A stretch of DNA of 64,000 nt, from assembly GCA_964516995.1 (NCBI GenBank), contig CAZFAV010000004.1:18689-82688 (forward strand). Direction: 5' to 3'. Made by a program: the position numbers and the translations under genes. This document shows, one piece after another, positions 3,140 through 32,580 of this stretch; position 1 is the stretch's first letter, and each line of letters starts with the position of its first letter. The stretch is from an uncultured Candidatus Peribacteria bacterium. GTDB lineage: Bacteria > Patescibacteriota > Gracilibacteria > UBA1369 > 2-02-FULL-48-14. The notes under the pieces were generated by a model. The model did no database searches, was not told the DNA's origin, and saw nothing but the letters and a program-made list of their open reading frames with translations.

Positions 3140-3142
3140 ACC

Positions 3143-4034: not shown

Positions 4035-4082
4035 AATAAAGTTATTTACTATAAACTTTTTATTTTCTTTGTCAACTATTCC

Positions 4083-5054
4083 TCATTGAACCTGACCCAT
4101 CACCACGCTCACCATGAGGCAGCGGTCTTTAGCAATACAAGCCACTGCGGGGTCACCTCCGTGTGTGCCGATGAGAACTGCGTCCTCCCAGCCGTTCTTG
4201 CCCAAGTGAGCCACCCAGTTACTGGAAGCCTGCCCCATTCCGGGAGTACCATAGAAATAAAGGCCGTCTTCCCGAGCGACAAAGTTTCCTGTCCAGTTCA
4301 GTTTTTGCTCGCTAGTAAAAGTGAGATCATCTTGCATGGTAAAGGTGAGACCATCTTCAGAAGTGCCGTAGTGAGCTCCTGCGGTGTTTTCTGGCATGTT
4401 GTTGGGCGTGATCATGTGCCAGAGTCCGTCCCAATAGCCCACAGCGGAGTCGTATCCAGGCATGTCTGCCACATCAAAACGAATGCCCTCTTCGTAGGTA
4501 TAATGAATGCCATCTTCGGAGATGGCGGAGTAAATGTTGGTTTCGTCGGCGAAGGTAGCGGTCCCTTCCGGGCTGGAAGTGTAGTATAAACGTATGCGCC
4601 CGTCATCAAGCACTGCCAGCGTGGGATCAAAGGGCCGTTGAAGATCTGGAAAATCTGCGATGGTGATGGGCTCGGGTTCGGTCCATGTTTTCCCTTCATC
4701 GTCAGAAAAGATCACTGCCACTTGATCGAAAGTTTTTTCGCTGTCACAGCTGAACCACTGAAAAGCTAGAATGAGCCGGCCATCTGCATCTTGTACCAAA
4801 TTGGGTACTCCTCCCGCTTCTACAATAGTGACGGGATCCTCCTCGAATGCATCACCCTCCTCATCCAACCACTGAAGGTCCAAATTATTGTTCCATGGCC
4901 CCTGAAGCTGTTCTTCTTTCACACAAATCTGCAGAAATGCTGTGGCTTGAGGACTGCTCATTCCCGTGGGTTTATTGGGTGTCGATGTATCCGCGGGAGT
5001 GTTTGTGGAACAAGCGGTTGCTAAAACCAACAGCAAGGGCAGAAGACGGCGCAT
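4083..5054 (-). CDS. Lipoprotein with BNR/Asp-box repeats (sialidase-like beta-propeller fold suspected)
   Basis: MRRLLPLLLVLATAC lipobox. Asp-box-like 'SDDEGKTW', 'SEDGIHY' and 'SEDGLTF' repeats. Confidence 0.55.
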   Translation of the reverse strand: MRRLLPLLLVLATACSTNTPADTSTPNKPTGMSSPQATAFLQICVKEEQLQGPWNNNLDLQWLDEEGDAFEEDPVTIVEAGGVPNLVQDADGRLILAFQWFSCDSEKTFDQVAVIFSDDEGKTWTEPEPITIADFPDLQRPFDPTLAVLDDGRIRLYYTSSPEGTATFADETNIYSAISEDGIHYTYEEGIRFDVADMPGYDSAVGYWDGLWHMITPNNMPENTAGAHYGTSEDGLTFTMQDDLTFTSEQKLNWTGNFVAREDGLYFYGTPGMGQASSNWVAHLGKNGWEDAVLIGTHGGDPAVACIAKDRCLMVSVVMGQVQ

Positions 5055-5063
5055 ACAGGAGGG

Positions 5064-6485: not shown

Positions 6486-8117
6486 ATGAAGACCTGTGAG
6501 CGCTGCCAAATGGGGTTTGAGATCGGTACATGTGACCGCACTTTTTTAGAGAAGTTTGATGTGCCTGACCCCAAGCTTTGTCCTGATTGTCGCAACCAAC
6601 GTCGGCTTATTTTCCGTAATGACCGGAATTTCTACAAACGCAGCTGTGATCTTTGCCAAAAAGTGATCGTAAGCATTTGCTCTCCTGATAAACCCTTCCC
6701 CGTCTACTGCAAGGAATGTTATTTAAGCGATCGCTTCGACCCGCTCGTTTATGGCGCTTCCTACGATCCTTCTCGCTCTTTTATTGAGCAATTTGCTGAG
6801 ATGCGAGCTCGTGTACCTCGAGTGGCCAATTATTTTACGCAGTGTGAAAATTGCGATTACACCGTGCACACTGGCAACAGTCGCAATTGTTATATGGGCG
6901 CTTCTTTTGTGAATTGTGAAAACACTTATTATTCGGACTGGGCTTTTTATTGCAAAGACTCTTCTGATCTCTACATTTGCCAAAATATGGAGCGCTGCTA
7001 CGAATGCATGCAATGCGAGCAATGCTATAGCGGCATGTGGCTAGAAAACTGTATGGGCGTGAGTTTCTCTGCCCTTTGTTTTGATTGCCGTAGCTCTCAA
7101 TACCTTCTGGGCTGTGTGGGACAACGTCAAAAACAACACATGATTTTAAATGAGCCAGTGAGCGCGCAGGAATTTGAAAGCACTTGGAATAGGCTGATGA
7201 CTGACTCGACTTTTCGTAAGGAATTTAAAGAGAAATATCGTGCCCTTCGCCTCAGGATTCCCGTGAAATCCACTTGGGATAAAAACAGCGAAAACTGCAC
7301 TGGAAATTACGTGACCAATTCTCGCAACGCACAGGAGTCCTATGCGGTGAAAGATGTGGAGGATGGCTCTCATTTATACGAAGTGGGTGGACTCAAAGAT
7401 GGCATGGATGTGACCCGTTGTGCTCGTGGTGAATTTGTTTACGATGTGACGGCGCTCATCGATCTCAAGTTTAGTAAATTCTGCAATTTGTGTTATCAGT
7501 CCAGTAACATGGAGTACTGCGACAACTGCCAAAGTTCGCACAATTGTTTCGGTTGCATGGGGCTGAAGGGACATCGCTACTGCATTTTAAATCAGCAGTA
7601 TTCGCCCGAAGAATACGCCAGCTTGGTGGAAAAAATTCGTGCAGACATGCGAGCGCGGGGTGAGTACGGAGAGTTCTTCCCCGCTTCACTTTCGGTCTAT
7701 GGCTACAACGAAACCAAGGCTTGTGATTTCTATCCTCTGAGTAAAGAACAGGCCCTCGCAGAAGGGTTGAAGTGGCGGGACCCAGATGAAAGGTCTTACA
7801 CCGAACAAAAAATGAACTTACCAGAGGACTCCACAGAAGCTGCAGAAGATTTGGTGAACGAAGTACTGGCCTGCGAACTATGCAGTAAGAATTATCGTCT
7901 GATTTCTCAGGAATTGGCGCTGTATAAAATACTCGGAGTGCCTCTGCCACGGCAGTGCTACAATTGTAGACACTTGGCTCGCATGGCTTTGGAAACGCCT
8001 CGTCATTTGTGGGATCGCCACTGTGGCTCTTGTGGAATGGATATTCAAAGCACCTATTCCAGTGAGCGACCGGAGAAGGTTTTTTGTGAGAAGTGTTACC
8101 TAACCTCTGTAGTATGA
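6486..8117 (+). CDS. Cys-rich double-zinc-ribbon/CxxC-ladder family protein, paralogue P1 (subtype A, all four ribbons intact)
   Basis: I chose the ATG at MKTCERCQ, analogous to the other paralogues. N-module CxxC-x24-CxxC-x18-CxxC-x17-CxxC. Family motifs RPE-x-V(F/Y)CE-x-CY at the C-terminus. No TM or signal peptide. Confidence 0.9.
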   Translation: MKTCERCQMGFEIGTCDRTFLEKFDVPDPKLCPDCRNQRRLIFRNDRNFYKRSCDLCQKVIVSICSPDKPFPVYCKECYLSDRFDPLVYGASYDPSRSFIEQFAEMRARVPRVANYFTQCENCDYTVHTGNSRNCYMGASFVNCENTYYSDWAFYCKDSSDLYICQNMERCYECMQCEQCYSGMWLENCMGVSFSALCFDCRSSQYLLGCVGQRQKQHMILNEPVSAQEFESTWNRLMTDSTFRKEFKEKYRALRLRIPVKSTWDKNSENCTGNYVTNSRNAQESYAVKDVEDGSHLYEVGGLKDGMDVTRCARGEFVYDVTALIDLKFSKFCNLCYQSSNMEYCDNCQSSHNCFGCMGLKGHRYCILNQQYSPEEYASLVEKIRADMRARGEYGEFFPASLSVYGYNETKACDFYPLSKEQALAEGLKWRDPDERSYTEQKMNLPEDSTEAAEDLVNEVLACELCSKNYRLISQELALYKILGVPLPRQCYNCRHLARMALETPRHLWDRHCGSCGMDIQSTYSSERPEKVFCEKCYLTSVV

Positions 8118-9733
8118 CCACTTGCATACAGTGCCAGCGCCCCTTTGAGTGGACTCCCGAAGACGCGGCTTTCCTCAATAAAATCGCCCCGAGTATAGCT
8201 GGTACTTATTACGAATTCCCCGCGCCCACCCGATGCAGTGATTGCCGACGCCAACGCCGCTACAGTTTTCGCAATGATCGACACCTTTACAAACGTAAGT
8301 GCGACAAAACTGGGCGCGATATTATTTCCATCAATTCACCTGACAAAATTTATCCCGTCTATGCCATCGACGTGTGGTTCAGTGATGCTTATGATCCGCT
8401 AGAATACGGGCGGGACTTTGACTTTTCTAGGCCTTTTTTTGAACAGTTTGCCGAGCTCTCTCGCGTCGTACCGCGACCGGCTTCTTCGGTTGTGAACAGC
8501 GAAAACTGCGATTTCACCGCCTTCACATTGCAAAGTCGCAACTGTTTTTTAACATCTCGCCTATTTGGCAGCGAGGATATTTTCTACAGCTACTTGGCCA
8601 TTCACAGTCGATCTTCCATCGACTGTTACAACATCAACGACTGTGAGCTGTGTTACGAATGCAGCGACTGTGTACAGTGTTATCAATGCATTTACACCGA
8701 GCGTTCCAAGGGCAGCAGCGACCTCAAATTCTGCGCGGATATGAGTTCGTGCCAGAATTGTTTCGGCTCTGTGGGACTCGTGCAAAAACAATTCTATTTT
8801 TTTAATCAGCCACTCACGAAAGAGGAATATCAGAAGAAAGTGGCCGAGTGGTTCGATGGCAGTGCCGAATCGGTGGAGCGTTGTTTGAGCGCCTTCCGTG
8901 AGCACCAGAAAAAATACCCTGTGCGCGCAATGAACATTTTCAATTCCGAAAATGTTCTTGGCAGCAGCATCTTCGACAGCCGTAATATTTATAACTCTTT
9001 CGACATGGTGCAGTGCGAGGACTCGCGTTACTGCACCCAGAGTGAAAACTGCAAAGATATTATGGACGTGGATTTTGGAACGAGATCTGAAATTGGTTAT
9101 GAAGTGCTGTCTGATGGCATGAATCGCAGCGTGTATTTTTCTTATGCAGTGATTGGTAGCAACAATGATATTCTGTACTCAATGGTGGCCTACAACGGAA
9201 ATCAAAATTGTTTTGGCTGTGTGGGAATCAAAAAAAACTCCTACTGCATTTTGAACAAGCAGTACACGAAGGAAGAATATGAAGCACTGGTGCCCCGTAT
9301 CATTGAACATATGAAACAAACCGGCGAATGGGGCCAGTACTTCCCGATAGAGCTGTCTAATGTGGGGTACAACGAAAGTTGCGCGATGCTCGTACGTCCA
9401 CTTACTAAGGAACAAGCCCAGGCTCAGGGCTATCACTGGCACGACATGGAAGAAAGTGCCCCTGTGCAGGCCGAAGGCGAGAACATCGTGAAATGCAAAG
9501 AGAGCGGTCGCAGCTTTAGGCTGATCCCACAGGAGCTTAAGTTCTATGCGCAATTGGGCCTACCACGTCCTAGCGTGCATCCGGACCTCCGCCATTTAAA
9601 ACGGGTGGCCCTGCGTAATCCCTACTCCCTACACCCCAGCACCTGCCGCAAATGCTCTAAGGGCATTTGGACAGACCAAAGCGAAGACCGTATTATTTAC
9701 TGTATTGAGTGTTATTTGAGGGAGGTGTATTGA
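8114..9733 (+). CDS. Cys-rich family paralogue P2 (subtype B)
   Basis: ATGA overlap with P1 (8114-8117). MTTCIQCQ...RCSDCRRQRR, YGRDFDFSRPFFEQFAEL, YCILNKQYTKEEYEALVPRIIEHMKQTGEWGQYFP, C-terminal IIYCIECYLREVY. Confidence 0.9.
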   Translation: MTTCIQCQRPFEWTPEDAAFLNKIAPSIAGTYYEFPAPTRCSDCRRQRRYSFRNDRHLYKRKCDKTGRDIISINSPDKIYPVYAIDVWFSDAYDPLEYGRDFDFSRPFFEQFAELSRVVPRPASSVVNSENCDFTAFTLQSRNCFLTSRLFGSEDIFYSYLAIHSRSSIDCYNINDCELCYECSDCVQCYQCIYTERSKGSSDLKFCADMSSCQNCFGSVGLVQKQFYFFNQPLTKEEYQKKVAEWFDGSAESVERCLSAFREHQKKYPVRAMNIFNSENVLGSSIFDSRNIYNSFDMVQCEDSRYCTQSENCKDIMDVDFGTRSEIGYEVLSDGMNRSVYFSYAVIGSNNDILYSMVAYNGNQNCFGCVGIKKNSYCILNKQYTKEEYEALVPRIIEHMKQTGEWGQYFPIELSNVGYNESCAMLVRPLTKEQAQAQGYHWHDMEESAPVQAEGENIVKCKESGRSFRLIPQELKFYAQLGLPRPSVHPDLRHLKRVALRNPYSLHPSTCRKCSKGIWTDQSEDRIIYCIECYLREVY

Positions 9734-9758
9734 GTACGATTCATGTCTCACCCTTTAT

Positions 9759-10481
9759 CTAATTCTCGGCCCACATTTTTTCAAACACAGCCATGAACAT
9801 TTTGTAAAAGGCAGGATTGGTAATACAAATGCAGTTGGTTTCTGCGGTTGCATCAAAAAGCATGATTTTATTGTCGAACAGGATACAAGTGGTTTCAAAA
9901 TAAGGGTCTTTAGGAAGAAATCTTACCTCTCGGCAGCTGGTTTTATCTTTCTTTTTTAAGTCTAATGCTGCTGGTGTTTTTTGAGCTAATAGCCGCGCGT
10001 AAATTTTCTTTTTTATTCTCTCTTTAGTCCATTTCTCCTCCCTCTTTGGATCTATGCCTTTTAAGAAAACATCGTAGTTGATCCAAATATTGATTACTTC
10101 GGGCTCGGTTCGGAGTATGTCTTCGTACATTTCTCGGTATCCTTCTGTGCCCTTGTAATATTGAACCTCGATGACCTGAGGAACATTTTTAGTAGCTTCA
10201 GCGAATCTGTCGACTAAATTTTGTGCTGCTTCATATTTTTCTTTTTCTTGATGCAAAACTTTTTTTGGATCATCTATCACAAAATAAGTCACGCGGCCTT
10301 TTTTGTAGCTGTAGACCAAATTCCTTTCCTCCAAGTTTTTTAAGGCTGCATATACGGTGGGCCTTTTAATTCCACTCATTCGTGCAAGAACTGAGGGTTG
10401 AGCGGTCCCAAGGTTAAACAAGAGAAGATATATGGCTGCCTCTTTAGGAGAAAATCCGAGTTTATAGAGTTCTTCTCTCAC
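9759..10481 (-). CDS. TrmB-family transcriptional regulator (TrmB-1)
   Basis: N-terminal winged-helix signature LGFSPKEAAIYLLLFNLGTAQPSVLARMSGIKRPTVYAALKNLEERNLV, about 240 aa. Convergent with P2 and divergent from the next block. Confidence 0.8.
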   Translation of the reverse strand: MREELYKLGFSPKEAAIYLLLFNLGTAQPSVLARMSGIKRPTVYAALKNLEERNLVYSYKKGRVTYFVIDDPKKVLHQEKEKYEAAQNLVDRFAEATKNVPQVIEVQYYKGTEGYREMYEDILRTEPEVINIWINYDVFLKGIDPKREEKWTKERIKKKIYARLLAQKTPAALDLKKKDKTSCREVRFLPKDPYFETTCILFDNKIMLFDATAETNCICITNPAFYKMFMAVFEKMWAEN

Positions 10482-10501
10482 TTTTTTAATGTTTAGATTT
10501 C

Positions 10502-10529
10502 ATTATCCTTTTTCTATGCCATTTGCCAA
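10502..10529 (-). promoter_or_regulatory. Candidate sigma70-type promoter for TrmB-1
   Basis: On the minus strand, TTGGCA (10524-10529), a 16-nt spacer, then GATAAT (10502-10507), about 20 nt upstream of the ATG at 10481. Confidence 0.4.
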
Positions 10530-10561
10530 GACCCTGGCTGGTTCGACATGTTTTTGGCTTA

Positions 10562-10589
10562 TTGACTTTCGATCTCTTTATTTTAAAAT
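10562..10589 (+). promoter_or_regulatory. Candidate promoter for the 470-aa gene / P3-P5 block
   Basis: TTGACT (10562-10567), a 16-nt spacer, then TAAAAT (10584-10589). The ATG at 10607 is only about 11 nt from the predicted TSS. Confidence 0.45.
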
Positions 10590-10606
10590 AGAATCTTATA
10601 TTTGAC

Positions 10607-12019
10607 ATGGAAAGAGTGCCACAAAACGAAAGCGGGTGGGAAGCTTTAAAAGCGTTTTGGAAACGCACTTTAACAGAGCGGAGCCTCACTTTAGATATAG
10701 ATGAGGAAGGACTTTCCGTTCAGAAAAAGCAAAAAATTGGACCAAAAGGGTTGATCGAAGACTGTTATATCCCAGGAGGAGATGTCCATGCATTTTATGT
10801 GGGAAAGATTCCTTTAAGGGGACCATGGCTAGCACTTAAAGACATCTCTGGGTGGGAAGAACAGAATCCCACTTATTCAAAACCTTATCTACAAGCGGCC
10901 TTGTCTTATGCTCAGACTTTTCTTCAAGATGGTCCCGTACGATTTGTGATTGGAGTCGAGCTACAAACTTTTTGTAATGGCCGTGATTCTATGCAGGGAC
11001 ATTTGTCTGCTCAAGAGGAAAGGGCTTTTTTGCTTAGAGTGGCCCAAGAGCACCACGTGCCGTTGGAGGATGTTTTAATTTCTACTTTTAGAGAAGACCA
11101 TCCAGAACTGTTTTTGGCTTTAGATGCTGCTGCTGACCCTATTTCCGGTCGCGTTCAGCTAGATCAAGTTTTTCTGTCAGAAATGCCCATACTTTCTGCT
11201 TCGTCTAATGCCCTGGAGCTGGCTACTGTGCTTTATAAAGCGGCGCAAAAAAGTAGCAAGCTCAGAAAGGCTTTTCAAAGTTTGATTCCGGAGGAACTAA
11301 AAAAACAACGGGACGCGGATGAAAATACTTTCTGTTCGATGGATGCTTACGGACTTTTTGAAGTCGCCATACGCTTGGTGGATATTTTACGTGGCCGATA
11401 CATCCATGGTGGGGTGGATAGGCAAGGAGCTCTCGGCCAAGTAATTATTCAGCTGATTAGAGGGAGAGAAGGCATTTTTTCCTCTATTCTAGCCTTGGAT
11501 CCACTTTTCACTCTTCTCCAAGCTCAGTCTTTCCAAGCCCTTAATATTGATCGAAATAAGAATGAATTTGAAAGAGAGCGCATTGTTCATAGAGCTCGAT
11601 CTCGTATCCATGGCATCTATGGCCTAGGCGCAAGCATCGCGGTAGCAGTGGCTTCCAGTTATGGAATCTGGTCTTACCACCAAAAGGCCGAACAAGAGGG
11701 CTATTTTGACCAAGCTGTGCTTAGGGTGGGCTCTCATATTCAATGTCCTGAAATTCCTAATTTTGACTTAACAGAGCAGGCTAGATCAATAGAGTCACAA
11801 TTTGCATCTGACCTGAGTGATCGTTACAAAACATCCATCCCCTTTGGAGACTTGGAGCCCTTTTTGATGGAGGAGCTCTTTTCTCATCCAAAAGTCTGTT
11901 TGATTATGAATAGTGATCAAGACCGCCTAGATTTTCTTGATGATTTCGTACGCCATCACCCTTTTGTTTTTTGCTTTGAGGGAAATCCTAATCCAGCCGC
12001 TTGGTGTTTGTCTCAGTAA
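10607..12019 (+). CDS. Hypothetical protein (470 aa, one predicted TM helix near residue 345)
   Basis: Long ORF with coding-like composition and no recognisable motif. The hydrophobic stretch IYGLGASIAVAVASSYGIWSY is the only TM-like segment. It heads the second block of the array. Confidence 0.7.
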   Translation: MERVPQNESGWEALKAFWKRTLTERSLTLDIDEEGLSVQKKQKIGPKGLIEDCYIPGGDVHAFYVGKIPLRGPWLALKDISGWEEQNPTYSKPYLQAALSYAQTFLQDGPVRFVIGVELQTFCNGRDSMQGHLSAQEERAFLLRVAQEHHVPLEDVLISTFREDHPELFLALDAAADPISGRVQLDQVFLSEMPILSASSNALELATVLYKAAQKSSKLRKAFQSLIPEELKKQRDADENTFCSMDAYGLFEVAIRLVDILRGRYIHGGVDRQGALGQVIIQLIRGREGIFSSILALDPLFTLLQAQSFQALNIDRNKNEFERERIVHRARSRIHGIYGLGASIAVAVASSYGIWSYHQKAEQEGYFDQAVLRVGSHIQCPEIPNFDLTEQARSIESQFASDLSDRYKTSIPFGDLEPFLMEELFSHPKVCLIMNSDQDRLDFLDDFVRHHPFVFCFEGNPNPAAWCLSQ

Positions 12020-12034
12020 GTTCCAATAGAGAGC

Positions 12035-12063
12035 TTGTCCTGTCGACCTTTTTCCGATATAAA
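12035..12063 (+). promoter_or_regulatory. Candidate internal promoter upstream of P3
   Basis: TTGTCC (12035-12040), a 17-nt spacer, then TATAAA (12058-12063). The ATG lies at 12081. Confidence 0.4.
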
Positions 12064-12080
12064 TAAGCTCTTTGATTTTT

Positions 12081-13727
12081 ATGGAACAGACCTGCAAAAT
12101 CACGGGGAAAAAGTTTGAATTTACGGACTGGGAGCTTCAAGTTCTGAGGAAATTTAGTGTGGATTTCCCAGCTCCTACGCTGTGCATTGAAGAGCGGCAC
12201 CGTCGCCGTTTGGCGCATCGCAATGAACGTAAGATTTACAAAAGCAAATGTGCCCTTTCCGGCAAAGATATTGTTTCGGTCTACTCGCCGGATAAACCCT
12301 ATACTGTGCTGGCTCCGGAGGTGTGGTGGAGTGACCAATGGGATCCCAAGTCCTATGGGCGTGACTTTGATTTTTCTCGTCCTTTTTTTGAACAGTTTGC
12401 AGAGCTTGAGCGGGATGTGCCTCACCTCGCGCTCATCAATGTGAATGGAGAAAACAGCGACTATTGCAATCTCACCACCGGTAATAAAAACTGCTATTTG
12501 GTCTTTGGCGGGGACTACAACCAAGACTCCATGTACAGCGCCTTCAGCATGCATGGCATAGACAATGTGGACGTATACTGGGTCACGGGCTCGGAGCTCA
12601 TTTATGACTGCACCGATTGTGAGGGCTGCTACAACCTTAAGTATTCTCGCAACTGTGTCTCTTGCCGCGAAAGTGCCTTTCTTTTTGCCTGCCGCAACTG
12701 TGAGAATTGTTTTGGCTGTGTGGGGCTCATCGGAAAGAAATACCACATTTTCAATCAGCCCTACTCGCCCGAAGAGTACAAAAAGAAAATTGCGGAATAC
12801 GATTTGAGTTCTTGGAAGAGCGTACAGTATTTAAAAGAAGAATTTGAGAAATTTCGGCTTAAATTCCCTCACCGTTATGCGCAAATCATCAACTCGGAAA
12901 ACTGCACCGGGGACCATATTTCTAATGCTAAAAATTGCATCAATTGCTTTGGCATAGAAGGTCCAGCGGAGGATGCGAAGGATCTTTTTTTGAGTGCGGA
13001 GAACATCAAAGACTGTTTGAGTTCGAGTCATTTTGGATACAAGGTGGAACTTTATTACGAGATGCTCGGTTCCTTGGAAGGCCGCGACTGTGCTTTTTGT
13101 AGTTTTTCTTGGACCTCCCAATCCACCTTCTACTGCGAAATGGTCACAAACTCTCACGACCTTTTTGGCTGCAGCAATATGAAGCGCGCGGAGTACTGCA
13201 TTTTGAACAAGCAATACAGCAAGGAGGAGTATTTTGCTTTGCGAGATCGAATCATGGAGCACATGAAGAAAACCGGAGAGTGGGGTGAGTTTTTCCCGAT
13301 TCAAAACTCCTTGTTTGCCTACAATGAGACCGTGGCCCAGGACTACTTCCCTCTCACTAAAGAGGAGGCTCTGGCTAAGGGCTATCAATGGCTGGATGAA
13401 GAAAGGCGCTCTGGCATTGGTCCGATGATTCCTGATCGTATTTCTGACACAACAGATACTATTCTGGGTCAGGCTTTAGTCTGTGAAAAAACGGGCCGTC
13501 CTTACCGCGTGATTCCTCAGGAATTGGCCTTTTATAGAAAGATGGGAGTGCCCGTGCCTCACTATGCACCAGAAACTCGCAATGAGCTGCGGATTGCCCT
13601 TAGAAATCCCATTCAAACATGGGAGCGGAAATGTGTGAAGTGCAACAAACCGATTCAGAGTTCTTATGCTCCCCACCGTCCAGAAATCGTGTACTGTGAT
13701 GACTGTTATTTAGCCTTGATGTACTAA
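12081..13727 (+). CDS. Cys-rich family paralogue P3 (subtype C, N-terminal ribbons degenerate)
   Basis: ATG at MEQTCKITG (the ORF-track TTG at 12072 is less likely). The single-Cys 'CKITGKKF' and 'LCIEERHRRR' replace CxxC/CPxCR. The family core motifs and the C-terminal CVKCNKPIQSSYAPHRPEIVYCDDCY are intact. Confidence 0.9.
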   Translation: MEQTCKITGKKFEFTDWELQVLRKFSVDFPAPTLCIEERHRRRLAHRNERKIYKSKCALSGKDIVSVYSPDKPYTVLAPEVWWSDQWDPKSYGRDFDFSRPFFEQFAELERDVPHLALINVNGENSDYCNLTTGNKNCYLVFGGDYNQDSMYSAFSMHGIDNVDVYWVTGSELIYDCTDCEGCYNLKYSRNCVSCRESAFLFACRNCENCFGCVGLIGKKYHIFNQPYSPEEYKKKIAEYDLSSWKSVQYLKEEFEKFRLKFPHRYAQIINSENCTGDHISNAKNCINCFGIEGPAEDAKDLFLSAENIKDCLSSSHFGYKVELYYEMLGSLEGRDCAFCSFSWTSQSTFYCEMVTNSHDLFGCSNMKRAEYCILNKQYSKEEYFALRDRIMEHMKKTGEWGEFFPIQNSLFAYNETVAQDYFPLTKEEALAKGYQWLDEERRSGIGPMIPDRISDTTDTILGQALVCEKTGRPYRVIPQELAFYRKMGVPVPHYAPETRNELRIALRNPIQTWERKCVKCNKPIQSSYAPHRPEIVYCDDCYLALMY

Positions 13728-15317: not shown

Positions 15318-15347
15318 GCTGGTATAGTGCTGCAGTTCCCTATAAAT

Positions 15348-17018: not shown

Positions 17019-17767
17019 GCCACAAAGGAAGTGGCACCGAGCCAAGCGAGATTGTACACCGCTCTTTGTGTGCGAGCGTACACTGCGGATTCAATGAGTA
17101 GGCCAATGGATTCCTCGGGATCGAGCGACATGACTGCAACCGTGTTCCCATAAATAGAAATTTGATTTTCAAAGTTGAACTCTTTGGGGTTTACAAAGAG
17201 AATTTCCACAAGTTCTTCTGGATAATTTTTGGGATAAAAGGTTTTCACAAAGCGACGCGCTTCTTCAGTGGAGGGGGAGAGTAGACGGGTTTTAATTCCT
17301 CGCTTCACGAGTTTCTGGGTGTAGCTGGGCAGATAGTCAGGGAGCAATTTGCCTAATGCAGCCAAGTTGGTGTAACCCAGCACTTCCGACTCCGCCTCTA
17401 GGGTTTGATCGAAGATGGTTTTGATCCCCTCGATTCCTTCGTAAGAACGAATAAGTGGTTTAAAAGATTGTGGACTGATGAGCGAAAGGAGTTGAGGCAA
17501 AAGCTTTTTGGCAGAAGCGTATTTTTCTTGAATTTGATTAACGAGAACTTGCGGAGGCTCGGCCACAAAAAACTTCACATTGCCTTTGAGATTGGACGTG
17601 ACGAGTCCGCGGCGCCGCAGATTTTCTAAGACATAATAACAGTTCACGCGTGGTACTTTGGATTTGCTGGCGATGGTGCTGGCAAAGGACCCTCCCAGCT
17701 CTAAGACGGTGAGGTAAACTTGTGCCTCTTCTTTGGATAAACCGAGTTCTTCGAGCTCAGGAAGCAT
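17012..17767 (-). CDS. TrmB-family transcriptional regulator (TrmB-2)
   Basis: LGLSKEEAQVYLTVLELGGSFASTIASKSKVPRVNCYYVLENLRRRGLV winged-helix signature, 251 aa. The 3' end overlaps the P5 stop by 7 nt (convergent). Confidence 0.8.
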   Translation of the reverse strand: MLPELEELGLSKEEAQVYLTVLELGGSFASTIASKSKVPRVNCYYVLENLRRRGLVTSNLKGNVKFFVAEPPQVLVNQIQEKYASAKKLLPQLLSLISPQSFKPLIRSYEGIEGIKTIFDQTLEAESEVLGYTNLAALGKLLPDYLPSYTQKLVKRGIKTRLLSPSTEEARRFVKTFYPKNYPEELVEILFVNPKEFNFENQISIYGNTVAVMSLDPEESIGLLIESAVYARTQRAVYNLAWLGATSFVAQ

Positions 17768-17793
17768 AGTGTTGTAAAGTTTTTTCTACAATA

Positions 17794-17822
17794 ATTTTAA
17801 TCTGTTATAAGTATAATTTCAA
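17794..17822 (-). promoter_or_regulatory. Candidate promoter for TrmB-2
   Basis: On the minus strand, TTGAAA (17817-17822), a 17-nt spacer, then TAAAAT (17794-17799). The ATG lies at 17767. Confidence 0.45.
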
Positions 17823-17831
17823 GCAAATCGT

Positions 17832-17860
17832 ATGACAATATTTACAAAATTTGCTATGAT
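17832..17860 (+). promoter_or_regulatory. Candidate promoter for the csaA-like/P6-P8 block
   Basis: ATGACA (17832-17837), a 17-nt spacer, then TATGAT (17855-17860). Its -35 lies 9 nt from the -35 of the divergent TrmB-2 promoter. Confidence 0.45.
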
Positions 17861-17919
17861 GGGTACTAGCATTTAGAAAACAGGGCCAAACCCCTGTCCG
17901 TTTATTTCATTTGTCTTCT

Positions 17920-18252
17920 ATGGCGACTATCGACGATTTCAATGCCTTAGACATCCGCGTGGGTAAAATCACAGCGGCAGAACCCTTCCCTGAGGCACGA
18001 AAACCTGCTTACAAACTCACCATAGACTTTGGTCCAGAAATTGGACTGAAGCACTCTTCAGCTCAAATCACTCAGCATTATGAACGTGAAGCTTTGGTGG
18101 GTCGTTTGGTGCTGGGCGTGGTGAACTTTCCTCCTCGGCAAATCGGGCCTTTTCAATCTGAAGTGCTAACTTTGGGTTTGCCCGATGAAAATGGAGACGT
18201 GGTCCTTATTCAGCCTGATAGAGATTTACCCTTAGGTGGTCGCCTTTTCTAA
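17920..18252 (+). CDS. csaA: CsaA/YgjH-like tRNA-binding domain protein
   Basis: DIRVGKITAAEPFPEARKPAYKLTIDFGPEIGLKHSSAQIT...LVGRLVLGVVNFPPRQIGPFQSEVLTLG matches the OB-fold tRNA-binding (EMAP/CsaA) domain pattern. I prefer the ATG at 17920 to the TTG at 17911. Confidence 0.75.
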   Translation: MATIDDFNALDIRVGKITAAEPFPEARKPAYKLTIDFGPEIGLKHSSAQITQHYEREALVGRLVLGVVNFPPRQIGPFQSEVLTLGLPDENGDVVLIQPDRDLPLGGRLF

Positions 18253-18253
18253 T

Positions 18254-19900
18254 ATGAATTCCCTGACTAAAACTTGTAGAGTGAGCGGCCAAGATTTTGT
18301 GGTGAGTCCTACGGATCAAGCCTTTTATGAGAAACTGGGAGTTCCTTTACCCACTTTGAGCCCGGAAGAAAGACGACGACGACGCTATGCTCATCGCAAT
18401 GAAAGGCACTTGTACCATCGCACTTGTGGACTCAGTGGCAAGACTTTGATTTCCAATATTTCTCCAGAAAGTGGGATCCCCGTGTATGAATCTGCGGAAT
18501 GGTGGAGCGACAAATGGGACGCCCTGCAGTATGGCCGTGACTTTGATTTCTCCCGTCCTTTTTTCGAGCAATTTAAGGAACTTAGTCGTGTAGTGCCTCA
18601 ATTGGCTCTCTCAGTTTGGAATTCTGAGAACAGTAGTTATTGCAACTATGTAGGGAACGTGAAAGACTCTTATTTGATCTTTGGTTCGGTTTACTCCGAG
18701 CAGTGTTATTTCGGCTCTCCCTACTATTCCCGAGACTGCATCGATACTTTAGTGGTGCGCGATTGTGAACACTGCTACGAATGCATTGACTGTCGCAAAC
18801 TTTACGAATGTTTTTACTGCCAAGATTGCCACACTTCTTCGCAGCTCATTGCCTGTTATGACTGCCAAAGTTGCCAAGACTGCATCGGCTGTGCGGGTCT
18901 GCGCAGAAAGCAGTATTGCATCTTTAACAAACAAGTGAGCAAGGAAGAATATGAAAAGTTTAAGTCAGAGCTGAATCTTTGCGACCCAGCTACTCGAACT
19001 CATTTAGAGCAAGAACTCGCTCGGTTAAAGTTAGAAATTCCCCACCGCTACATGCACAGCGGGCAGGTAGAAAATGTGAGCGGAGATTATGTTTATCAAA
19101 GCAAAAACGCAGAAGATTGCTTCTTTACTGACCGCTCAGAAGACGTGGCTCACTGTATGCAAGTGGTGGACTTAAAAGATTGCTTTGATAATAATTTTAC
19201 AGAAGAAAATGAGCTCTGCTACGAATATTTAGGAGCTTATCAAAATCAGCGAGTCTTGTTTTCTAAGTTTCTCAATAAGGTCTCTGAAAGTTTCTACTGT
19301 GACAGTTGTTTCAATTCCAAAAATCTTTTTGGCTGTATTGGAATGAGAGGAAAGTCTTACTGCATTCTGAACAAGCAATACAGTAAGGAAGAATATGAAG
19401 CCTTAGTTCCTCGTATCATCGAGCATATGAAGAAAACGGGCGAGTGGGGTGAGTTTTTCCCTATAGACAGCTCTCTGTTTGCCTACAACGAAACAGTGGC
19501 CAATGAGTATTTTCCTCTGACCGAGGAAGAAGCTAAGGCCCGTAGCTACGCTTGGAGAAAAGAAGATGAAAGTAGTACTTACCAAGGTCCACACGCTCAA
19601 ATTCCGGAAAATATTTCTGAGGTGCCGGACTCTATCATGGACCAGATACTCACCTGCGAAGTGAGTGGGAAACTGTATAAAATCATCCCCGCTGAGTTGG
19701 AGTTTTACCGACGAATGCATTTGCCCGTGCCTCGTCGCTGTCCCAACCAGCGGCATCAAGATCGCCTCCAAAAGCGTAATCCTCAAAAACTATGGCCATG
19801 GGAATGCTCCCAGTGCGGGACTGGTATTTCTACTGTCTACTCACCTGAGCGAGCGGAAAAGGTTTACTGTGAAGCATGTTATTTAAAATTGGTTTACTAA
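18254..19900 (+). CDS. Cys-rich family paralogue P6 (subtype C)
   Basis: The ATG lies 1 nt after the csaA-like stop. 'CRVSGQDF' and 'LSPEERRRRR' mark degenerate ribbons. There are 12 Cys in 43 residues at 18764-18892. C-terminal KVYCEACYLKLVY. Confidence 0.9.
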   Translation: MNSLTKTCRVSGQDFVVSPTDQAFYEKLGVPLPTLSPEERRRRRYAHRNERHLYHRTCGLSGKTLISNISPESGIPVYESAEWWSDKWDALQYGRDFDFSRPFFEQFKELSRVVPQLALSVWNSENSSYCNYVGNVKDSYLIFGSVYSEQCYFGSPYYSRDCIDTLVVRDCEHCYECIDCRKLYECFYCQDCHTSSQLIACYDCQSCQDCIGCAGLRRKQYCIFNKQVSKEEYEKFKSELNLCDPATRTHLEQELARLKLEIPHRYMHSGQVENVSGDYVYQSKNAEDCFFTDRSEDVAHCMQVVDLKDCFDNNFTEENELCYEYLGAYQNQRVLFSKFLNKVSESFYCDSCFNSKNLFGCIGMRGKSYCILNKQYSKEEYEALVPRIIEHMKKTGEWGEFFPIDSSLFAYNETVANEYFPLTEEEAKARSYAWRKEDESSTYQGPHAQIPENISEVPDSIMDQILTCEVSGKLYKIIPAELEFYRRMHLPVPRRCPNQRHQDRLQKRNPQKLWPWECSQCGTGISTVYSPERAEKVYCEACYLKLVY

Positions 19901-21555
19901 TGACGCCTATTACTCAAAAATGTCGGGTGACTGGCCAAGCCTTTGTCATTGATGATGGAGACCAAGCCATGCTGGCTAAGCTGGGGATGCCATTACCCAC
20001 GCTTTGTCCTCAAGAGCGTCAAAGACGTCGTATGAGTTTTAGAAACGATCACCAACTCTACCACCGTAAATGTGATGCCACGGGTAAAGAAATCATCTCC
20101 TTATACCACTCTGATAGTCCATTCACTATTTATAGCCAAGAGTTTTATAGGAGCGATAAGTGGGACCCTAAAACATATGGGCAAGATTTTGATTTTTCTA
20201 GACCTTTCTTTGAGCAGTTTGCTGAGTTGCAAAAAAAGGTGCCTCGCATTGCCATCAATGCTTTAGGCAATGAAAATTCAGATTTCACTAGTTATACCGG
20301 CTGGAATCGCAATTGTTACCTCATTGTCACTTCGGATCGAAATGAAGATTCATACTTTGGCTACTTTCTTTTTGACAGTAAGAACTGTGTGGATAGCTTG
20401 TATGTTTTCAACTCAGAACTCTGCTATGAATGCGTAGACTGTAAGAATTGCTACCACTGTTTCTTTGGCCTGAATCTGGAAAACTGTACGGACTGCTTGT
20501 TCTCTCGTGATCTTATTGGATGCAGTGAATGTTTTGGCTGTATTAATCTTCGAAATAAAAAGTACTGTTACTTTAACGAGCAGCTGACTAAAGAAGAGTA
20601 TGAAAAAAGAATCAATGCGTTAAATCTGGCCTCCTATGAATCACTAAAGGCTATTCGTGGGGAGGTAGAGGCATTCTTTTTAAGTCATCCACGACGCGCC
20701 CTGGACATTAAAGCCTCGGAAAATGTTTCTGGAGATCATATTAAATTCTCAAAAAATTGTTCTAATGCTTACGATGTAAGTAATTGTCAGGACTGCCGCT
20801 ATGTTTCTCACTTTATCAACTCTAAAGATTGTATGGATTGGGACTACTGTGGAGACAAAAGCGAAATGGGTTACGAAATTAGTGGCTGCGTTGATTTGAA
20901 GTTTTCTGCTTTTGCCACCAACTGTTGGGTGGGTAATAGCTACCTCTATTACTGTGATTTGATGAATAACTCGAAGTACTGCTTTGGGTGTATTGGACTG
21001 GATAAAGGCGAATACTGCATTTTGAATAAGCAGTACAGTAAGGAAGAATATGATGTGCTGGTAGGTCGTATCGTGGATCATATGAAGAAAACTGGTGAAT
21101 GGGGCGAATTCTTCCCTTCACCATTGAGTCCCTTTGGTTACAACGAGACGGTGGCGCAGGATTACCTTCCTTTGACCCAGGAACAGGCTCAAGAGAGAGG
21201 TTTACGTTGGCATAATAAGGCAGAAAAAGCCTCCTATCAGGGTCCGAAGCTGAGCTTGCCTGACTCTGTGAAGGAAACGGATGAAAAAATCTGTTCTCAA
21301 ATTCTCACTTGTGAAGTCAGTGATGAACATTACCGGGTCATTTCTCAAGAACTTCGCTTCCATAAAGAGCACCAACTGGCTTTGCCACGGCGTTCTCCAA
21401 ACCAAAGATTTTTGGATCGCGTTCGCTTGCGAAATCCTCGTCAACAATGGGCAAGAAGCTGTGGGCTCTGTGGCAAAACCATGATGAGCAGTTATAGCCC
21501 TGAGCGCCCTGAGATTGTCTACTGTGAAGAATGCTTTATTAAAACCGTTTACTGA
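19900..21555 (+). CDS. Cys-rich family paralogue P7 (subtype C)
   Basis: TAATG overlap with P6. 'CRVTGQAF' and 'LCPQERQRRR'. YCILNKQYSKEEYDVLVGRIVDHMKKTGEWGEFFP. C-terminal IVYCEECFIKTVY. Confidence 0.9.
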   Translation: MTPITQKCRVTGQAFVIDDGDQAMLAKLGMPLPTLCPQERQRRRMSFRNDHQLYHRKCDATGKEIISLYHSDSPFTIYSQEFYRSDKWDPKTYGQDFDFSRPFFEQFAELQKKVPRIAINALGNENSDFTSYTGWNRNCYLIVTSDRNEDSYFGYFLFDSKNCVDSLYVFNSELCYECVDCKNCYHCFFGLNLENCTDCLFSRDLIGCSECFGCINLRNKKYCYFNEQLTKEEYEKRINALNLASYESLKAIRGEVEAFFLSHPRRALDIKASENVSGDHIKFSKNCSNAYDVSNCQDCRYVSHFINSKDCMDWDYCGDKSEMGYEISGCVDLKFSAFATNCWVGNSYLYYCDLMNNSKYCFGCIGLDKGEYCILNKQYSKEEYDVLVGRIVDHMKKTGEWGEFFPSPLSPFGYNETVAQDYLPLTQEQAQERGLRWHNKAEKASYQGPKLSLPDSVKETDEKICSQILTCEVSDEHYRVISQELRFHKEHQLALPRRSPNQRFLDRVRLRNPRQQWARSCGLCGKTMMSSYSPERPEIVYCEECFIKTVY

Positions 21556-23243
21556 TGCAAAAAACTTGTAAAAATTGCCAAATTTCTTTTGAGATTTATC
21601 CTGAAGACCTTGCTTTTTATGAGCGCATCTCTCCTACTTTTGACGGCAAGAAATTTCCTATTCCTACTCCCACGCTCTGCCCAACCTGCCGATGGCAAAG
21701 GCGTACTGCTTTTAGAAATGAGCGGACGCTCTATCATGCCACTTGCGGGCTGAGTGGAAAGTCCATGATTTCCATGCATCGTCCCGACGTTCCTTTTCCT
21801 GTGTACTCCATTAACGAGTGGCGCTCCGATAAATGGAATCCTTTAGATTACGGTCGAGATTTTGATTTCTCTCGACCTTTCTTTGAACAATTTAAGGAGC
21901 TTTGTGATCGGGTTCCACACTTCAACTTATTTGTAGATCCAGACATGGATGTAAACTCCGAATACACGAACTGTGCCGATCATTCAAAAAACTGCTATCT
22001 CATTTCTCAGGCAGAAAATAATGAAGACTGTTACTACACTCGTGGCATCAACCAGTGTAAGGACTGCGTTGATGATTTGCGCATCCAACAGTCGGAACTC
22101 TGCTATGAATGTGTAGGGCTTTTTTCATGCTATCGCTGCCTTTACTGCCAAGACTGCGAAAACAGCGTGGACTGTGCTTTTTCATCTGATTTAAAAGGAT
22201 GTAAAAACTGTTTTGGCTGCCATGGTTTGGTTCAAAAACAGTATTACTTTTTTAATCAGCCACTCAGCAAGGAAGAGTGGGAGAAACGAGTTCAAGAACT
22301 GGAACTGACCCCGGTTCTCATTGAAGAACTTCAAGCGCAAAGTGAGACTGTACGACTCCAAACTCCGCATCGAGCCGTGCACCAGACTCAGTGCGAAAAC
22401 GTAACAGGAGACCATTTGGTGCAGTGTAAAAATTCTCACGATGTTTATGACTCTAAAGATTTAGAAGAATGCGCTTATTGTTACGAAATTTTGAATGGTG
22501 CCAAGTATGCTTACGATTACTCCATGTGGGGTGTAAATGCGGAATTGCTCTACGAGTGTAATGGCGTGGGAAACAATGCTTACAACGTTTTGTTCACCAA
22601 TCATGGGTGGCAGAATTTGACGAATGTTCTTTACAGCGAAAGCTGTTTCCCATCTGTTAAAGACTGCTTTGGCTGTTTTGGACTCCGTCGTGCTCAATAC
22701 TGTATTTTCAATAAGCAATACACTAAAGAAGAATATGAATCGATGGTGGCTCGCATTTTGGAACACATGCAAAAAACGGGGGAATGGGGTGAATTTTTCC
22801 CGATTGAAATGAGTCCTTTTGCGTATAACGAAACCGTAGCTCAACTGGTGCTCCCTCTAAGCAAAGAGCAAGTTTTAGCCAAGGGTTGGAAGTGGTATGA
22901 GCGTGAAGAAGCTAAAGCACAATATATTGGACCGGATGTAGAGATCCCTAGTAAAATTCGTGAAACAAGTGATGAAATCACCAAACAAATTTTACGCTGC
23001 AAAAAAACTGGAAAGCTTTATAAAGTGATCCCCCAAGAACTGAACTTCTACCGAAAAATGGGTGTCCCTGTGCCCCTTGTTTGTCCTGAGCAAAGGCTTT
23101 TGGATCGAGCGGCTCGGCGAAATCCTCGTGTTCTCTGGAATCGAGCTTGCAGCGCTTGTGGACAAAACACTCTCAGTAGCTATGCTCCGAATCGACCAGA
23201 AATCGTGTACTGCGAAGCCTGTTATTTAAAAACGGTTTACTAA
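21555..23243 (+). CDS. Cys-rich family paralogue P8 (subtype B)
   Basis: TGATG overlap with P7. MQKTCKNCQ...ISPTFDGKKFPIPTPTLCPTCRWQRR. YCIFNKQYTKEEYESMVARILEHMQKTGEWGEFFP. C-terminal IVYCEACYLKTVY. Confidence 0.9.
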   Translation: MQKTCKNCQISFEIYPEDLAFYERISPTFDGKKFPIPTPTLCPTCRWQRRTAFRNERTLYHATCGLSGKSMISMHRPDVPFPVYSINEWRSDKWNPLDYGRDFDFSRPFFEQFKELCDRVPHFNLFVDPDMDVNSEYTNCADHSKNCYLISQAENNEDCYYTRGINQCKDCVDDLRIQQSELCYECVGLFSCYRCLYCQDCENSVDCAFSSDLKGCKNCFGCHGLVQKQYYFFNQPLSKEEWEKRVQELELTPVLIEELQAQSETVRLQTPHRAVHQTQCENVTGDHLVQCKNSHDVYDSKDLEECAYCYEILNGAKYAYDYSMWGVNAELLYECNGVGNNAYNVLFTNHGWQNLTNVLYSESCFPSVKDCFGCFGLRRAQYCIFNKQYTKEEYESMVARILEHMQKTGEWGEFFPIEMSPFAYNETVAQLVLPLSKEQVLAKGWKWYEREEAKAQYIGPDVEIPSKIRETSDEITKQILRCKKTGKLYKVIPQELNFYRKMGVPVPLVCPEQRLLDRAARRNPRVLWNRACSACGQNTLSSYAPNRPEIVYCEACYLKTVY

Positions 23244-23255
23244 AGCTTTGCAGGT

Positions 23256-23284
23256 TGTATCAGGTTCAATAATCTGGTATAATA
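23256..23284 (+). promoter_or_regulatory. Candidate promoter for the TraD/VirD4-like ATPase gene
   Basis: TTGTAT (23256-23261), a 17-nt spacer ending in TGG, then TATAAT (23279-23284). The ATG at 23300 implies a leader of only about 9 nt. Confidence 0.5.
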
Positions 23285-23299
23285 GGTTATTGGATATTT

Positions 23300-25558: not shown

Positions 25559-25720
25559 TACTATTTTTGACCTATCTCAACTCGCTCAACGGAACCGTCC
25601 CCGTCCCATGATTGGCAGGACTAGTTTTAGCATGTGAATTTTTAAAAGTCCTGACAAAAACCTGACTTAAATACTTCTAATGCAACTTTATTGCGTTAGG
25701 TCAGACTTAGGATTTGATCT

Positions 25721-32544: not shown

Positions 32545-32580
32545 AATGAAGGGCAAACCTGGGGGAGTTTAACGACATTT

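Follow-up and report, generated by a model that had tools for sequence, protein, structure and literature searches.

Bacteria of the candidate phyla radiation (CPR, or Patescibacteria) make up a large share of bacterial diversity with genomes of about 1 Mb, yet a single protein family can fill more than 13 kb of one of their loci. What is such a family for? We address the question in a 64,000-nucleotide stretch of DNA, called the window throughout, from an uncultured Candidatus Peribacteria bacterium (GenBank assembly GCA_964516995.1, contig CAZFAV010000004.1, positions 18,689 to 82,688 of the forward strand). It holds eight plus-strand genes, P1 to P8, that encode paralogous cysteine-rich proteins and whose array takes up about 20% of its length. 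Gene neighbourhoods indicate that the family is genetically tied to one soluble, DUF8128-containing VirD4-like ATPase and to TrmB-like regulators.

A preliminary description of this DNA had listed the eight genes and the motifs that they share. All eight open reading frames (ORFs) run from an ATG to a single stop exactly where it had placed them (Table 1), all of its motifs are found in the consensus, and its hand count of 37 cysteines among the 529 residues of P4 is exact. The proteins are colinear from end to end, with pairwise identities of 33–48% in an alignment of the eight copies. They are all acidic (pI 5.5–5.9) and, as had been expected, look cytoplasmic: no segment resembles a transmembrane helix, the highest 19-residue Kyte-Doolittle mean being 1.36, and no N-terminus carries a hydrophobic, signal-like stretch.

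We reject the possibility that the array is an artefact of assembly. The copies share no repeats at the DNA level in a repeat scan of the array. The independent assembly of a sister strain (locus L083), built from four sequencing runs, has the order P3-P4-P5-TrmB-CsaA-P6-P7-P8-ATPase, identical to that of the window, and its gene calls give P4 to P8 the same lengths. Window and sister strain are ~97–99.9% identical. The ratio of nonsynonymous to synonymous substitution (dN/dS) between them is 0.076 for P6, 0.082 for P8 and 0.115 for the ATPase gene, values by which the array genes are under purifying selection. Because the sister strain keeps the gene order and dN/dS is about 0.08, P1–P8 can be taken as real genes.

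Divergence between the two strains is mosaic over window positions 13728–25558: at the nucleotide level P4, P5 and P7 are 99.9% identical, P6 97.0%, P8 98.5% and the ATPase gene 97.8%. The pattern suggests recombination within the array. The sister strain also carries a ninth, more degenerate member (L083 14022–15656, minus strand; 544 aa), recognized by the hidden Markov model (HMM) of the family at E=1e-102. Together with a 152-aa gene, it is inserted between the ATPase gene and a PurP-like gene, where the window has just a 162-nt intergenic gap (25559–25720). Judging from the two sequences, the ninth copy is a strain-level gain or loss.

How far does the family extend? A word-indexed search found more than 7,589 clusters at 90% identity, and an exhaustive profile search 5,639 clusters at 50% identity, 2,424 of them at E≤1e-30. 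The top 150 clusters at 50% identity are almost all full length (~530–600 aa). Species-representative genomes gave at least 571 confirmed matches, and the named taxa among the 78 best loci are all CPR lineages: Peregrinibacteria/Peribacteria, Gracilibacteria, Abawacabacteria, Paceibacterota, Nomura-, Staskawicz-, Lipton-, Harrison- and Gribaldobacteria, Sungiibacteriota and Saccharibacteria. Arrays are usual, with 1–10 full copies per locus over up to 22 kb. The share of DNA given to one family, previously called exceptional, is thus the norm for this family across the CPR.

Copies within a locus are deeply diverged (median identity 42%, maximum 57%), on which ground we reject a recent amplification. 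The closest relative of 235 out of 248 copies lies in another genome, at a median identity of 58%. Clear one-to-one orthologues of P1, P2, P3, P4 and P6 occur only in close Peribacteria; synteny with housekeeping genes is conserved across Peribacteria. The pattern fits long-term upkeep of non-redundant copies, and neither recent amplification nor rapid turnover. A mobile-element or phage origin is also rejected, since phage records, plasmid records and 2.9 million viral contigs lack the family, save for one partial edge match. As far as these comparisons go, the family is CPR-wide and chromosomal, and its paralogues are old. That many CPR phyla keep as many as ten copies, each conserved separately, is strong evidence for an important lineage-specific function.

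The gene neighbourhood offers a first clue to that function. A census that covered 83 loci and 1,198 ORFs shows just two neighbours that recur. TrmB-like regulators (48 genes in 37 loci) lie almost always on the opposite strand, a few hundred bases from a family gene. A VirD4-like ATPase (29 genes in 25 loci) is usually encoded on the same strand, across gaps of 4–60 nt, in Peregrini-, Gracili-, Nomura- and Saccharibacteria and in Paceibacterota. Counted by adjacency to an array, homologues of the TrmB-like gene occur in 38 of 82 loci and those of the ATPase gene in 24. CsaA-like genes adjoin arrays in only 5 of 82 loci and DEAD-box helicase genes also in 5; the latter, like genes for ABC ATPase, ORF6N, MazF and RF1, count as sporadic, and no other neighbour recurs. 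Near the partners, the loci examined have no channel genes of a type IV secretion system (T4SS), relaxase, toxin domains or immunity genes. As a separate observation, toxin-antitoxin (ParE/Phd, MazF/PemK-like) and ORF6N genes are inserted between copies in several genomes, for instance at 13323–13864, 15572–16153 and 20332–20871 of L001; the window array has none.

The ATPase of the window, a P-loop protein, matches the Pfam families T4SS-DNA_transf, TrwB_AAD_bind and TraG-D_C and, weakly, DUF87/HerA as well as mad8 and HerA of PADLOC. It has no transmembrane segment (maximum hydropathy 1.00). Its N-terminal domain is of the DUF8128 type, and its homologues carry PF26449 DUF8128. No solved relative of it is found by sequence in the PDB. 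It also matches phrog_5156 at E=4e-67; distant homologues in SPO1-like Bacillus phages and phage G share the ATPase domain only.

The reverse test started from ATPase homologues, 60–92% identical and 739–773 aa long, that were picked solely by the length of their sequence record. Nearly all combine PF26449 DUF8128 with a TrwB/VirD4 ATPase domain. All six of their loci are flanked by 2–5 family members (hmmsearch E from 1e-177 to 1e-222), and a TrmB-like gene is present in five of them as well. In two loci the array runs on the opposite strand; the linkage thus persists after rearrangement. Patescibacteria encode 5,713 VirD4-like type IV coupling proteins (T4CPs), only 148 of them near virB4; that they were 'exapted for other functions' has been left open, and their neighbours were not described (PMC12102498). 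The linkage gives a concrete and testable candidate partner for thousands of these 'orphan' coupling proteins, whose role is an open question in that work.

What do the partners of the ATPase look like? All share the mirror-like layout A - L1 - B - helices - B' - L2 - variable linker - A'. With P6 as the reference, the borders are 1–85 for A, 86–114 for L1, 115–228 for B, 229–262 for the helices, 263–376 for B', 377–435 for L2, 436–464 for the variable linker and 465–548 for A'. Two internal duplications are evident. The N-terminal 85 and the C-terminal 84 residues (A and A') are homologous, with an hhalign probability of 99.8% (E=7e-28), and so are B (~115–228) and B' (~263–376), again at 99.8% (E=2e-28). 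We obtained single-copy AlphaFold2 models of P6, with a mean predicted local distance difference test (pLDDT) of 83.8 and a predicted template modelling score (pTM) of 0.83, and of P1, the copy richest in Cys (pLDDT 81.5, pTM 0.84). Both give the same order of secondary structures. In each terminal module a treble-clef-like unit of one β-hairpin and a helix precedes a ribbon of two hairpins; B and B' are coils poor in strands, and the strands that can be detected there are spaced 12 residues apart.

In a family alignment with 272 full-length members from 83 loci, the Cys-rich columns of B and B' recur strictly at every third residue. At this period the spectral power amounts to 14.4 and 18.7, compared with about 1 elsewhere, and the signal was reached by 0 of 5000 shuffles. 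Neither A nor L2 shows it, and the solenoids have no power at 6 or 18. Ladder positions are Cys at frequencies of 0.3–0.9, with Ser and then Val or Leu as substitutes; most are 30–75% Cys, and the second solenoid, B', has lost most of its Cys with the fold kept. The two Cys-dense central segments described before are present, and we would read them rather as a duplicated tight solenoid with an inward-facing Cys/Ser ladder than as discrete ligand sites. Best conserved are Cys 207, 210 and 213 in the last coil of B (0.85–0.93 Cys), where four positions (204–213) are all Cys in 52% of members only. Each protein of the family has 21–52 Cys in total.

Four candidate Zn sites lie in the terminal modules. 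The C-terminal ribbon (C2) keeps its four Cys in 94% of the 272 members and in all eight window copies. The N-terminal treble clef (N1) is intact in 86% of members, the C-terminal treble clef (C1) in 45% and the N-terminal ribbon (N2) in 35%. Zn at these sites is probably structural and appears to have been dispensed with in many copies. In the family, paralogues that retain Zn sites and others free of them form a natural series for studying metal-site dispensability. The preliminary description had missed this graded loss of ligands, the duplications of terminal and central modules, the ATPase gene at 23300–25558 and the linkage to ATPase and TrmB-like genes.

The terminal modules are basic (+1 to +10), with an Arg-rich helix, and all between them is acidic. 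Near-invariant Arg residues stand in the terminal modules at R40, R44, R500 and R504. Across the family, aromatic residues, Gly, Pro, Asn and Arg make up most of the invariant positions, among them near-invariant tyrosines (Y376 0.99, Y411 0.97, Y381 0.96); D86, D164, D312 and E481 are conserved acidic residues. No column of the alignment has a conserved His, and no Ser/Lys/Asp constellation hints at catalysis. The proteins look non-enzymatic because their invariant residues look structural and a conserved His/Ser/Lys set is lacking.

Copies were further compared by mean pairwise column identity, among the eight paralogues and among the orthologues of P6. The first half of B scores 0.31 among paralogues versus 0.70 among orthologues, and the first half of B' 0.32 versus 0.67. 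The linkers behave differently: L1 has 0.64 versus 0.57 and L2 0.57 versus 0.61. From these values, the solenoids are copy-specific yet constrained, and the linkers are the family-wide core.

We now propose, tentatively, that the family members are non-enzymatic, copy-specific adaptor or recognition subunits of a cytoplasmic VirD4-like ATPase machine. The common function, which would be to bind nucleic acid, to dock to the ATPase or both, would lie in the basic terminal Zn modules and in L1 and L2. Each copy would owe its own client to the surfaces of its solenoids; client specificity is suggested because the solenoids differ between copies but are conserved among orthologues. TrmB-like repressors would choose which subset is expressed. 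A broader version, which we find possible and somewhat doubtful, makes the widespread orphan, membrane-less VirD4-like ATPases of Patescibacteria no part of secretion but the motor of a CPR-specific cytoplasmic machine with 2–10 ancient Cys-ladder adaptors, each with its own TrmB-like repressor. If true, it would establish a ring-ATPase/adaptor system of a new class, on a fold without a solved relative. In a bolder variant, the inward period-3 Cys ladder would hold a stack of metal-thiolate centres.

Several points weigh against adaptors of an ATPase machine. The contacts of the paralogues with the ATPase and with nucleic acid are predicted ones, and for the terminal Zn modules, which lack a characterised homologue, 'nucleic-acid binding' is suggested by Arg-rich composition and a source's name only. 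The linkage is facultative: an ATPase gene lies within 3 kb of 7 of 23 fully bounded arrays (5 of 5 among those with at least three copies). The six loci of the reverse test are fairly close relatives, with ATPases at least 62% identical. The first halves of the solenoids are modelled with moderate confidence only (pLDDT 60–72), the last coils at above 90. Finally, Cys 207, 210 and 213 could form a genuine metal or redox centre, that is, a different chemistry.

Is anything like this family known? Pfam, NCBIfam, PADLOC and PHROGs have nothing for the body of the protein, and neither PDB sequences nor Foldseek gave a full-length or significant match, in line with the earlier judgement that the family is uncharacterised. 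PADLOC-DB 2.0 has no match for P1, P4 or P6 in particular. At the termini, Zn-finger models match below their curated gathering thresholds: PF23477 zf_Tbcl_2 in six of the eight copies (best E=2.2e-4, 21.3 bits versus a cut-off of 27), TIGR04272 in five (best E=7.3e-4) and PF13451 zf_Tbcl in one (best E=0.015). Some homologues carry a precomputed PF13451 or PF23477 match. These 'probable treble-clef' models do resemble the terminal modules of P1–P8; however, they cover less than 10% of the proteins and are themselves function-free in annotation. In addition, TIGR04272 is CxxC-x17-CxxC, whereas the CxxC pairs of the family are ~24 residues apart (in P1) and many copies have lost ligands. One PHROG match, on the Cys hexads, is probably compositional.

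The family profile finds only weak LIM and ribosomal S17 matches among all PDB sequences. At the level of structure, the P6 and P1 models against the PDB, and P6 against the viral predicted structures of BFVD, gave no Foldseek match at E≤0.001. The best PDB matches are left-handed β-helix enzymes (LpxA, γ-carbonic anhydrase) at E≥0.5 and a TM-score below 0.2. The best viral ones are local, aligning a terminal module with phage 'putative zinc-ribbon domain' proteins at 0.4 Å over ~40 residues. For the central part, β-helix proteins are the sole structural neighbours, all of them insignificant. P1–P8 resemble hexapeptide-repeat left-handed β-helices in having small inward residues at every third position; in contrast to the [LIV]-[GAED]-x2-[STAV]-x hexads and 18-residue coils of that type, the family has a period of 3 with strands every 12 residues, and Hexapep (PF00132) does not match at E≤1. 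The antifreeze protein of Tenebrio molitor is a 12-residue β-helix with an internal Cys ladder and the repeat TCTxSxxCxxAx. Our models share with it the 12-residue strand spacing and the period-3 ladder, but Foldseek did not retrieve it, and disulfides in the ladder are unlikely in a cytoplasmic protein. The domain architecture with its period-3 Cys/Ser ladder is therefore without a characterised relative by sequence or predicted fold.

P1–P8 are already in public collections, where they and every other public copy bear the name 'hypothetical protein'. In the literature on CPR/Patescibacteria, Cys-rich or zinc-ribbon proteins, VirD4, TrmB and DUF8128 we found no description of the family, and publications on CPR protein families, on CPR-C4 and on conflict systems proved unrelated to it. 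The Cys-rich proteins of Candidatus Peribacter riflensis come from the same lineage and are likewise unusually high in Cys, but they are large (mean 1,655 aa), mostly with a signal peptide and extracellular, and members of the present family, at ~550 aa with no signal peptide or transmembrane segment, are not discussed there (PMC4736985). We reject identity with them on size and location. To our knowledge, the family and its ATPase linkage are new: we found no family model, structure or paper, and infer the function.

How is the array expressed? The eight copies reported as a tandem series are real, but their run is broken by four other genes: TrmB_a, orf470, TrmB_b and the CsaA-like gene. TrmB_a is convergent with P2 and divergent from orf470-P3-P4-P5, and TrmB_b is divergent from CsaA-P6-P7-P8-ATPase. 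Five of the six best promoter-like matches (10/12) in the 20-kb region fall in the two divergent intergenic regions between a TrmB-like gene and an operon. This arrangement supports three predicted transcription units: P1-P2, orf470-P3-P4-P5 and CsaA-P6-P7-P8-ATPase. The overlapping or abutting junctions given before are exact to the letter, and the short-range translational coupling read from them is real within the sub-operons. Of the 11 cluster genes (6486–25558), none is preceded at a usable distance by a motif of Shine-Dalgarno type; in the 25 nt scanned upstream, the single match to GGAG, GAGG, AGGA or GGTG stands 19 nt before the P6 start.

Orthologous loci conserve the TTTACA...TATAAT element of the downstream operon, and orthologues of TrmB_b (E from 1e-65 to 1e-135) occupy the same position in many loci. 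A palindrome abuts the TrmB_b start. Its family consensus is TGTAGAAA-NN-TTTCTACA, found at the same position in 8 aligned TrmB_b upstream regions, and it is perfect in L007 (18262–18279) and L042 (18148–18165). The perfect palindrome reads TGTAGAAATGTTTCTACA. It occurs at the starts of TrmB_b-type regulators in Peregrinibacteria and Abawacabacteria loci. With up to 3 mismatches, 39 matches occur in 1.35 Mb of loci, and 16 of them are placed between −80 and +60 nt relative to the 5' end of a TrmB-like gene; this zone makes up ~0.5% of the sequence, hence an enrichment of ~80-fold. In the window alone the palindrome is a single match and not significant; it is credible because it is conserved across loci. 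The region upstream of TrmB_a (10482–10606) lacks it. The palindrome is a likely operator and, with the TrmB-like regulators, provides a regulatory handle on the system.

Table 1 Features of the window discussed in the text. Positions are counted from the first letter of the window; intact candidate Zn sites are named where fewer than four are kept.
Feature	Position	Strand	Length (aa)	Cys	Intact candidate Zn sites	Remarks
P1	6486-8117	+	543	42	four	family member; four terminal CxxC...CxxC sites
P2	8114-9733	+	539	30	two (N1 + C2)	family member; start overlaps P1 stop (ATGA, 8114-8117)
DNA tandem repeat	8638-8690					inside P2; 27-nt unit x2, 80% identity; encodes part of the Cys hexad region; sole one in the array
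TrmB_a	9759-10481	-				TrmB-like winged-helix regulator; Pfam TrmB E=3.8e-13
Divergent promoter-like sites	10502-10589	both				minus 10529-10502 for TrmB_a; plus 10562-10589 for orf470-P3-P4-P5; 10/12 consensus matches each
orf470	10607-12019	+	470			not a family member; heads second transcription unit
P3	12081-13727	+	548	28	one (C2)	family member; four Cys kept only at the C-terminal ribbon
P4	13728-15317	+	529	37	four	family member; start abuts P3 stop (TAAATG, 13725-13730)
P5	15348-17018	+	556	35	two (N1 + C2)	family member
TrmB_b	17012-17767	-				TrmB-like regulator; Pfam TrmB E=3.7e-16; 3' end overlaps P5 stop
Palindrome TGTAAAGTTTTTTCTACA	17773-17790					abuts TrmB_b start; putative operator
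Divergent promoter-like sites	17794-17860	both				plus 17832-17860 for third unit; minus 17838-17810 and 17822-17794 for TrmB_b; 10/12 matches
CsaA/tRNA-binding-domain protein	17911-18252	+	113			heads third unit; stop 1 nt before P6 start
P6	18254-19900	+	548	33	one (C2)	family member; reference for domain borders
P7	19900-21555	+	551	33	one (C2)	family member; start overlaps P6 stop (TAATG, 19898-19902)
P8	21555-23243	+	562	36	two (N1 + C2)	family member; start overlaps P7 stop (TGATG, 21553-21557); most basic C-terminal module (+10)
VirD4/TraD-like ATPase	23300-25558	+	752			directly downstream of P8; closes third unit
DUF1246/DUF1297 gene	25721-26845	-				archaeal-type PurP
DUF1246/DUF1297 gene	28924-29970	-				archaeal-type PurP, paralogue of the preceding
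PurH	30973-32556	-				bacterial AICARFT/IMPCHase
Three successive large ORFs	48870-57844	-	1011, 797, 1138			almost no Pfam signal; TPR repeat in the first only

Could the paralogues be cargo of the ATPase instead of its adaptors? Of the other explanations this one survives best, and still we hold it to be unlikely. The proteins would be effectors, and the ATPase a coupling protein or unfoldase that feeds the T4SS of Patescibacteria, perhaps with the CsaA-like chaperone, so as to deliver them into host cells. T4CPs recognize substrates encoded nearby, often by basic C-terminal signals or conserved domains, and the most conserved part of this family is its basic C-terminal module; relaxosome proteins and the XVIPCD-bearing effectors of the Xanthomonas-type T4SS are the comparison for partners encoded next to a T4CP, the latter for a conserved C-terminal module. 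As with VirD4, TraD and TrwB, the ATPase gene adjoins, and is co-oriented with, the genes of its presumed partners, here several paralogues, and the P6-P7-P8-ATPase unit starts with the gene of a CsaA-type 'export-related chaperone'.

Moreover, the T4SS of Patescibacteria are without relaxases and are thought to serve another purpose (PMC12102498). Unlike VirD4, TraD and TrwB, however, the present ATPase has DUF8128 in place of an N-terminal membrane anchor, and most such genes are far from virB4. In Candidatus Southlakia, T4SS genes were essential for epibiotic growth but the homologue of the T4CP was not (PMC12102498). The family is conserved over its whole length, vertical, on the core chromosome and under strong purifying selection, which effectors usually are not. 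Zn-bound tight solenoids would also be poor substrates for unfolding, and a CsaA-like gene is a rare neighbour, as the census found.

A defence or conflict system is improbable. It would combine the ring ATPase with diversified sensor or effector paralogues, by analogy with complexes of HerA and its partners; HerA-NurA, Sir2-HerA and DUF4297-HerA do resemble our locus in coupling a soluble ring ATPase to non-ATPase partners. Each genome has several diverged paralogues with copy-specific surfaces, ParE/Phd, MazF/PemK and ORF6N genes are interspersed in some arrays, the ninth copy is present or absent between strains that diverge in a mosaic manner, and the ATPase has its weak mad8 and HerA matches. 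Yet the partners here lack a nuclease, NADase, protease or other effector-like domain as well as catalytic-looking residues, and PADLOC has no match for the family. They come in 2–10 diverged copies, and no pair within a locus exceeds 57% identity, which argues against recent turnover. Their loci sit in the core chromosome, in synteny with housekeeping genes across Peribacteria, and not in a defence island. Among CPR lineages its occurrence is near-universal and not patchy, and phages, plasmids and viral contigs lack it.

Less probable again is that the proteins are nucleic-acid enzymes, for instance a very divergent class of relaxase-like proteins or nucleases, or RNA-modifying enzymes, each copy with its own substrate. 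T4CP genes classically adjoin relaxase genes, the near-invariant tyrosines and conserved acidic residues named above speak for the idea, and tRNA-binding (CsaA-like) or DEAD-box helicase genes are adjacent in five loci each. 'Very different relaxases' might remain to be found in Patescibacteria (PMC12102498). But with no conserved His there is no HUH motif, and we found no match, by family or by fold, to a relaxase (MOB), Rep protein, nuclease or methyltransferase; the conserved residues look structural; and eight to ten relaxases per genome would be unprecedented.

We also give very little credence to the solenoids as metal or redox devices, whose inward Cys would bind Zn, Fe or Fe-S for storage, buffering, metal delivery as metallochaperones or electron conduction, with paralogues differing in their load. 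The high Cys content with CxxCxxC spacing is reminiscent of ferredoxin motifs, the three Cys of the last B coil are well conserved, and Zn ligands are kept or lost by degrees among copies. A weak hint comes from two neighbourhoods: the array adjoins genes for Fur and ferredoxin in L090 (1805–2528), and for thioredoxin, DsbD_2 and a Crp-like regulator in L092 (1314–3193). Most ladder positions, however, tolerate Ser, Val or Leu, unlike the invariant CxxCxxCxxxC(P)-type ligand sets of Fe-S proteins, the B' fold has outlived most of its Cys, no Fer4 or other metal-cluster family matches, and conservation is strongest in the non-Cys aromatic and acidic linkers. Such a device would also leave the link to an FtsK/HerA/VirD4-type ATPase unexplained.

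The earlier suggestion that all eight copies are co-expressed stoichiometrically as one obligate hetero-oligomer draws on the start/stop overlaps within P1-P2, P3-P4 and P6-P7-P8 and on copies that are old, non-redundant and individually conserved, and it is very unlikely in view of three separate units with their own regulators, a copy number of 1–10 among genomes (nine in the sister strain) and one-to-one orthologues of window copies in close relatives only.

Some further observations concern single genes of the array. The CsaA-like protein matches Pfam tRNA_bind (E=6e-15) and the NCBIfam models for tRNA-binding protein (E=5e-53) and CsaA (E=1e-46). The product of orf470 has no match in Pfam, NCBIfam, PADLOC or PHROGs, and the idea that it is a degenerate family member was rejected, as the family HMM does not match it. 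Among the loci compared, only L001 and L008 have homologues of orf470, which are longer (stop-to-stop ORFs of ~880 codons at 2959–5598 and ~672 codons at 16218–18233, respectively) and hold the equivalent position adjoining a TrmB-like gene. A survey of fusions for Rosetta-stone cases returned two singletons only, both possible run-ons of gene calling. P0231 (731 aa) joins an N-terminal GNAT acetyltransferase to the family body; P0149 (808 aa) extends the family body by 250 C-terminal residues, which look like a winged helix by eye and have no Pfam match.

Scans of the array against Rfam and for tandem repeats gave nothing relevant, and the whole 64 kb has no tRNA genes or Rfam matches. Elsewhere the window consists of ordinary core-chromosome DNA of a CPR bacterium of the Peribacteria type, with genes for PFOR, a GlmU-like protein, PurP, PurH, UppP, MutL, AlaRS, a MiaB-like protein, MurG and FtsW. 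The two DUF1246/DUF1297 paralogues, which we take to belong to the 5-formaminoimidazole-4-carboxamide ribonucleotide synthetase family, lie near PurH, and the same pair is syntenic in L088 and L089. Further downstream, in the region of the three large ORFs, both GC skew (−0.23) and AT skew (−0.18) are strongly negative at 50–52 kb.

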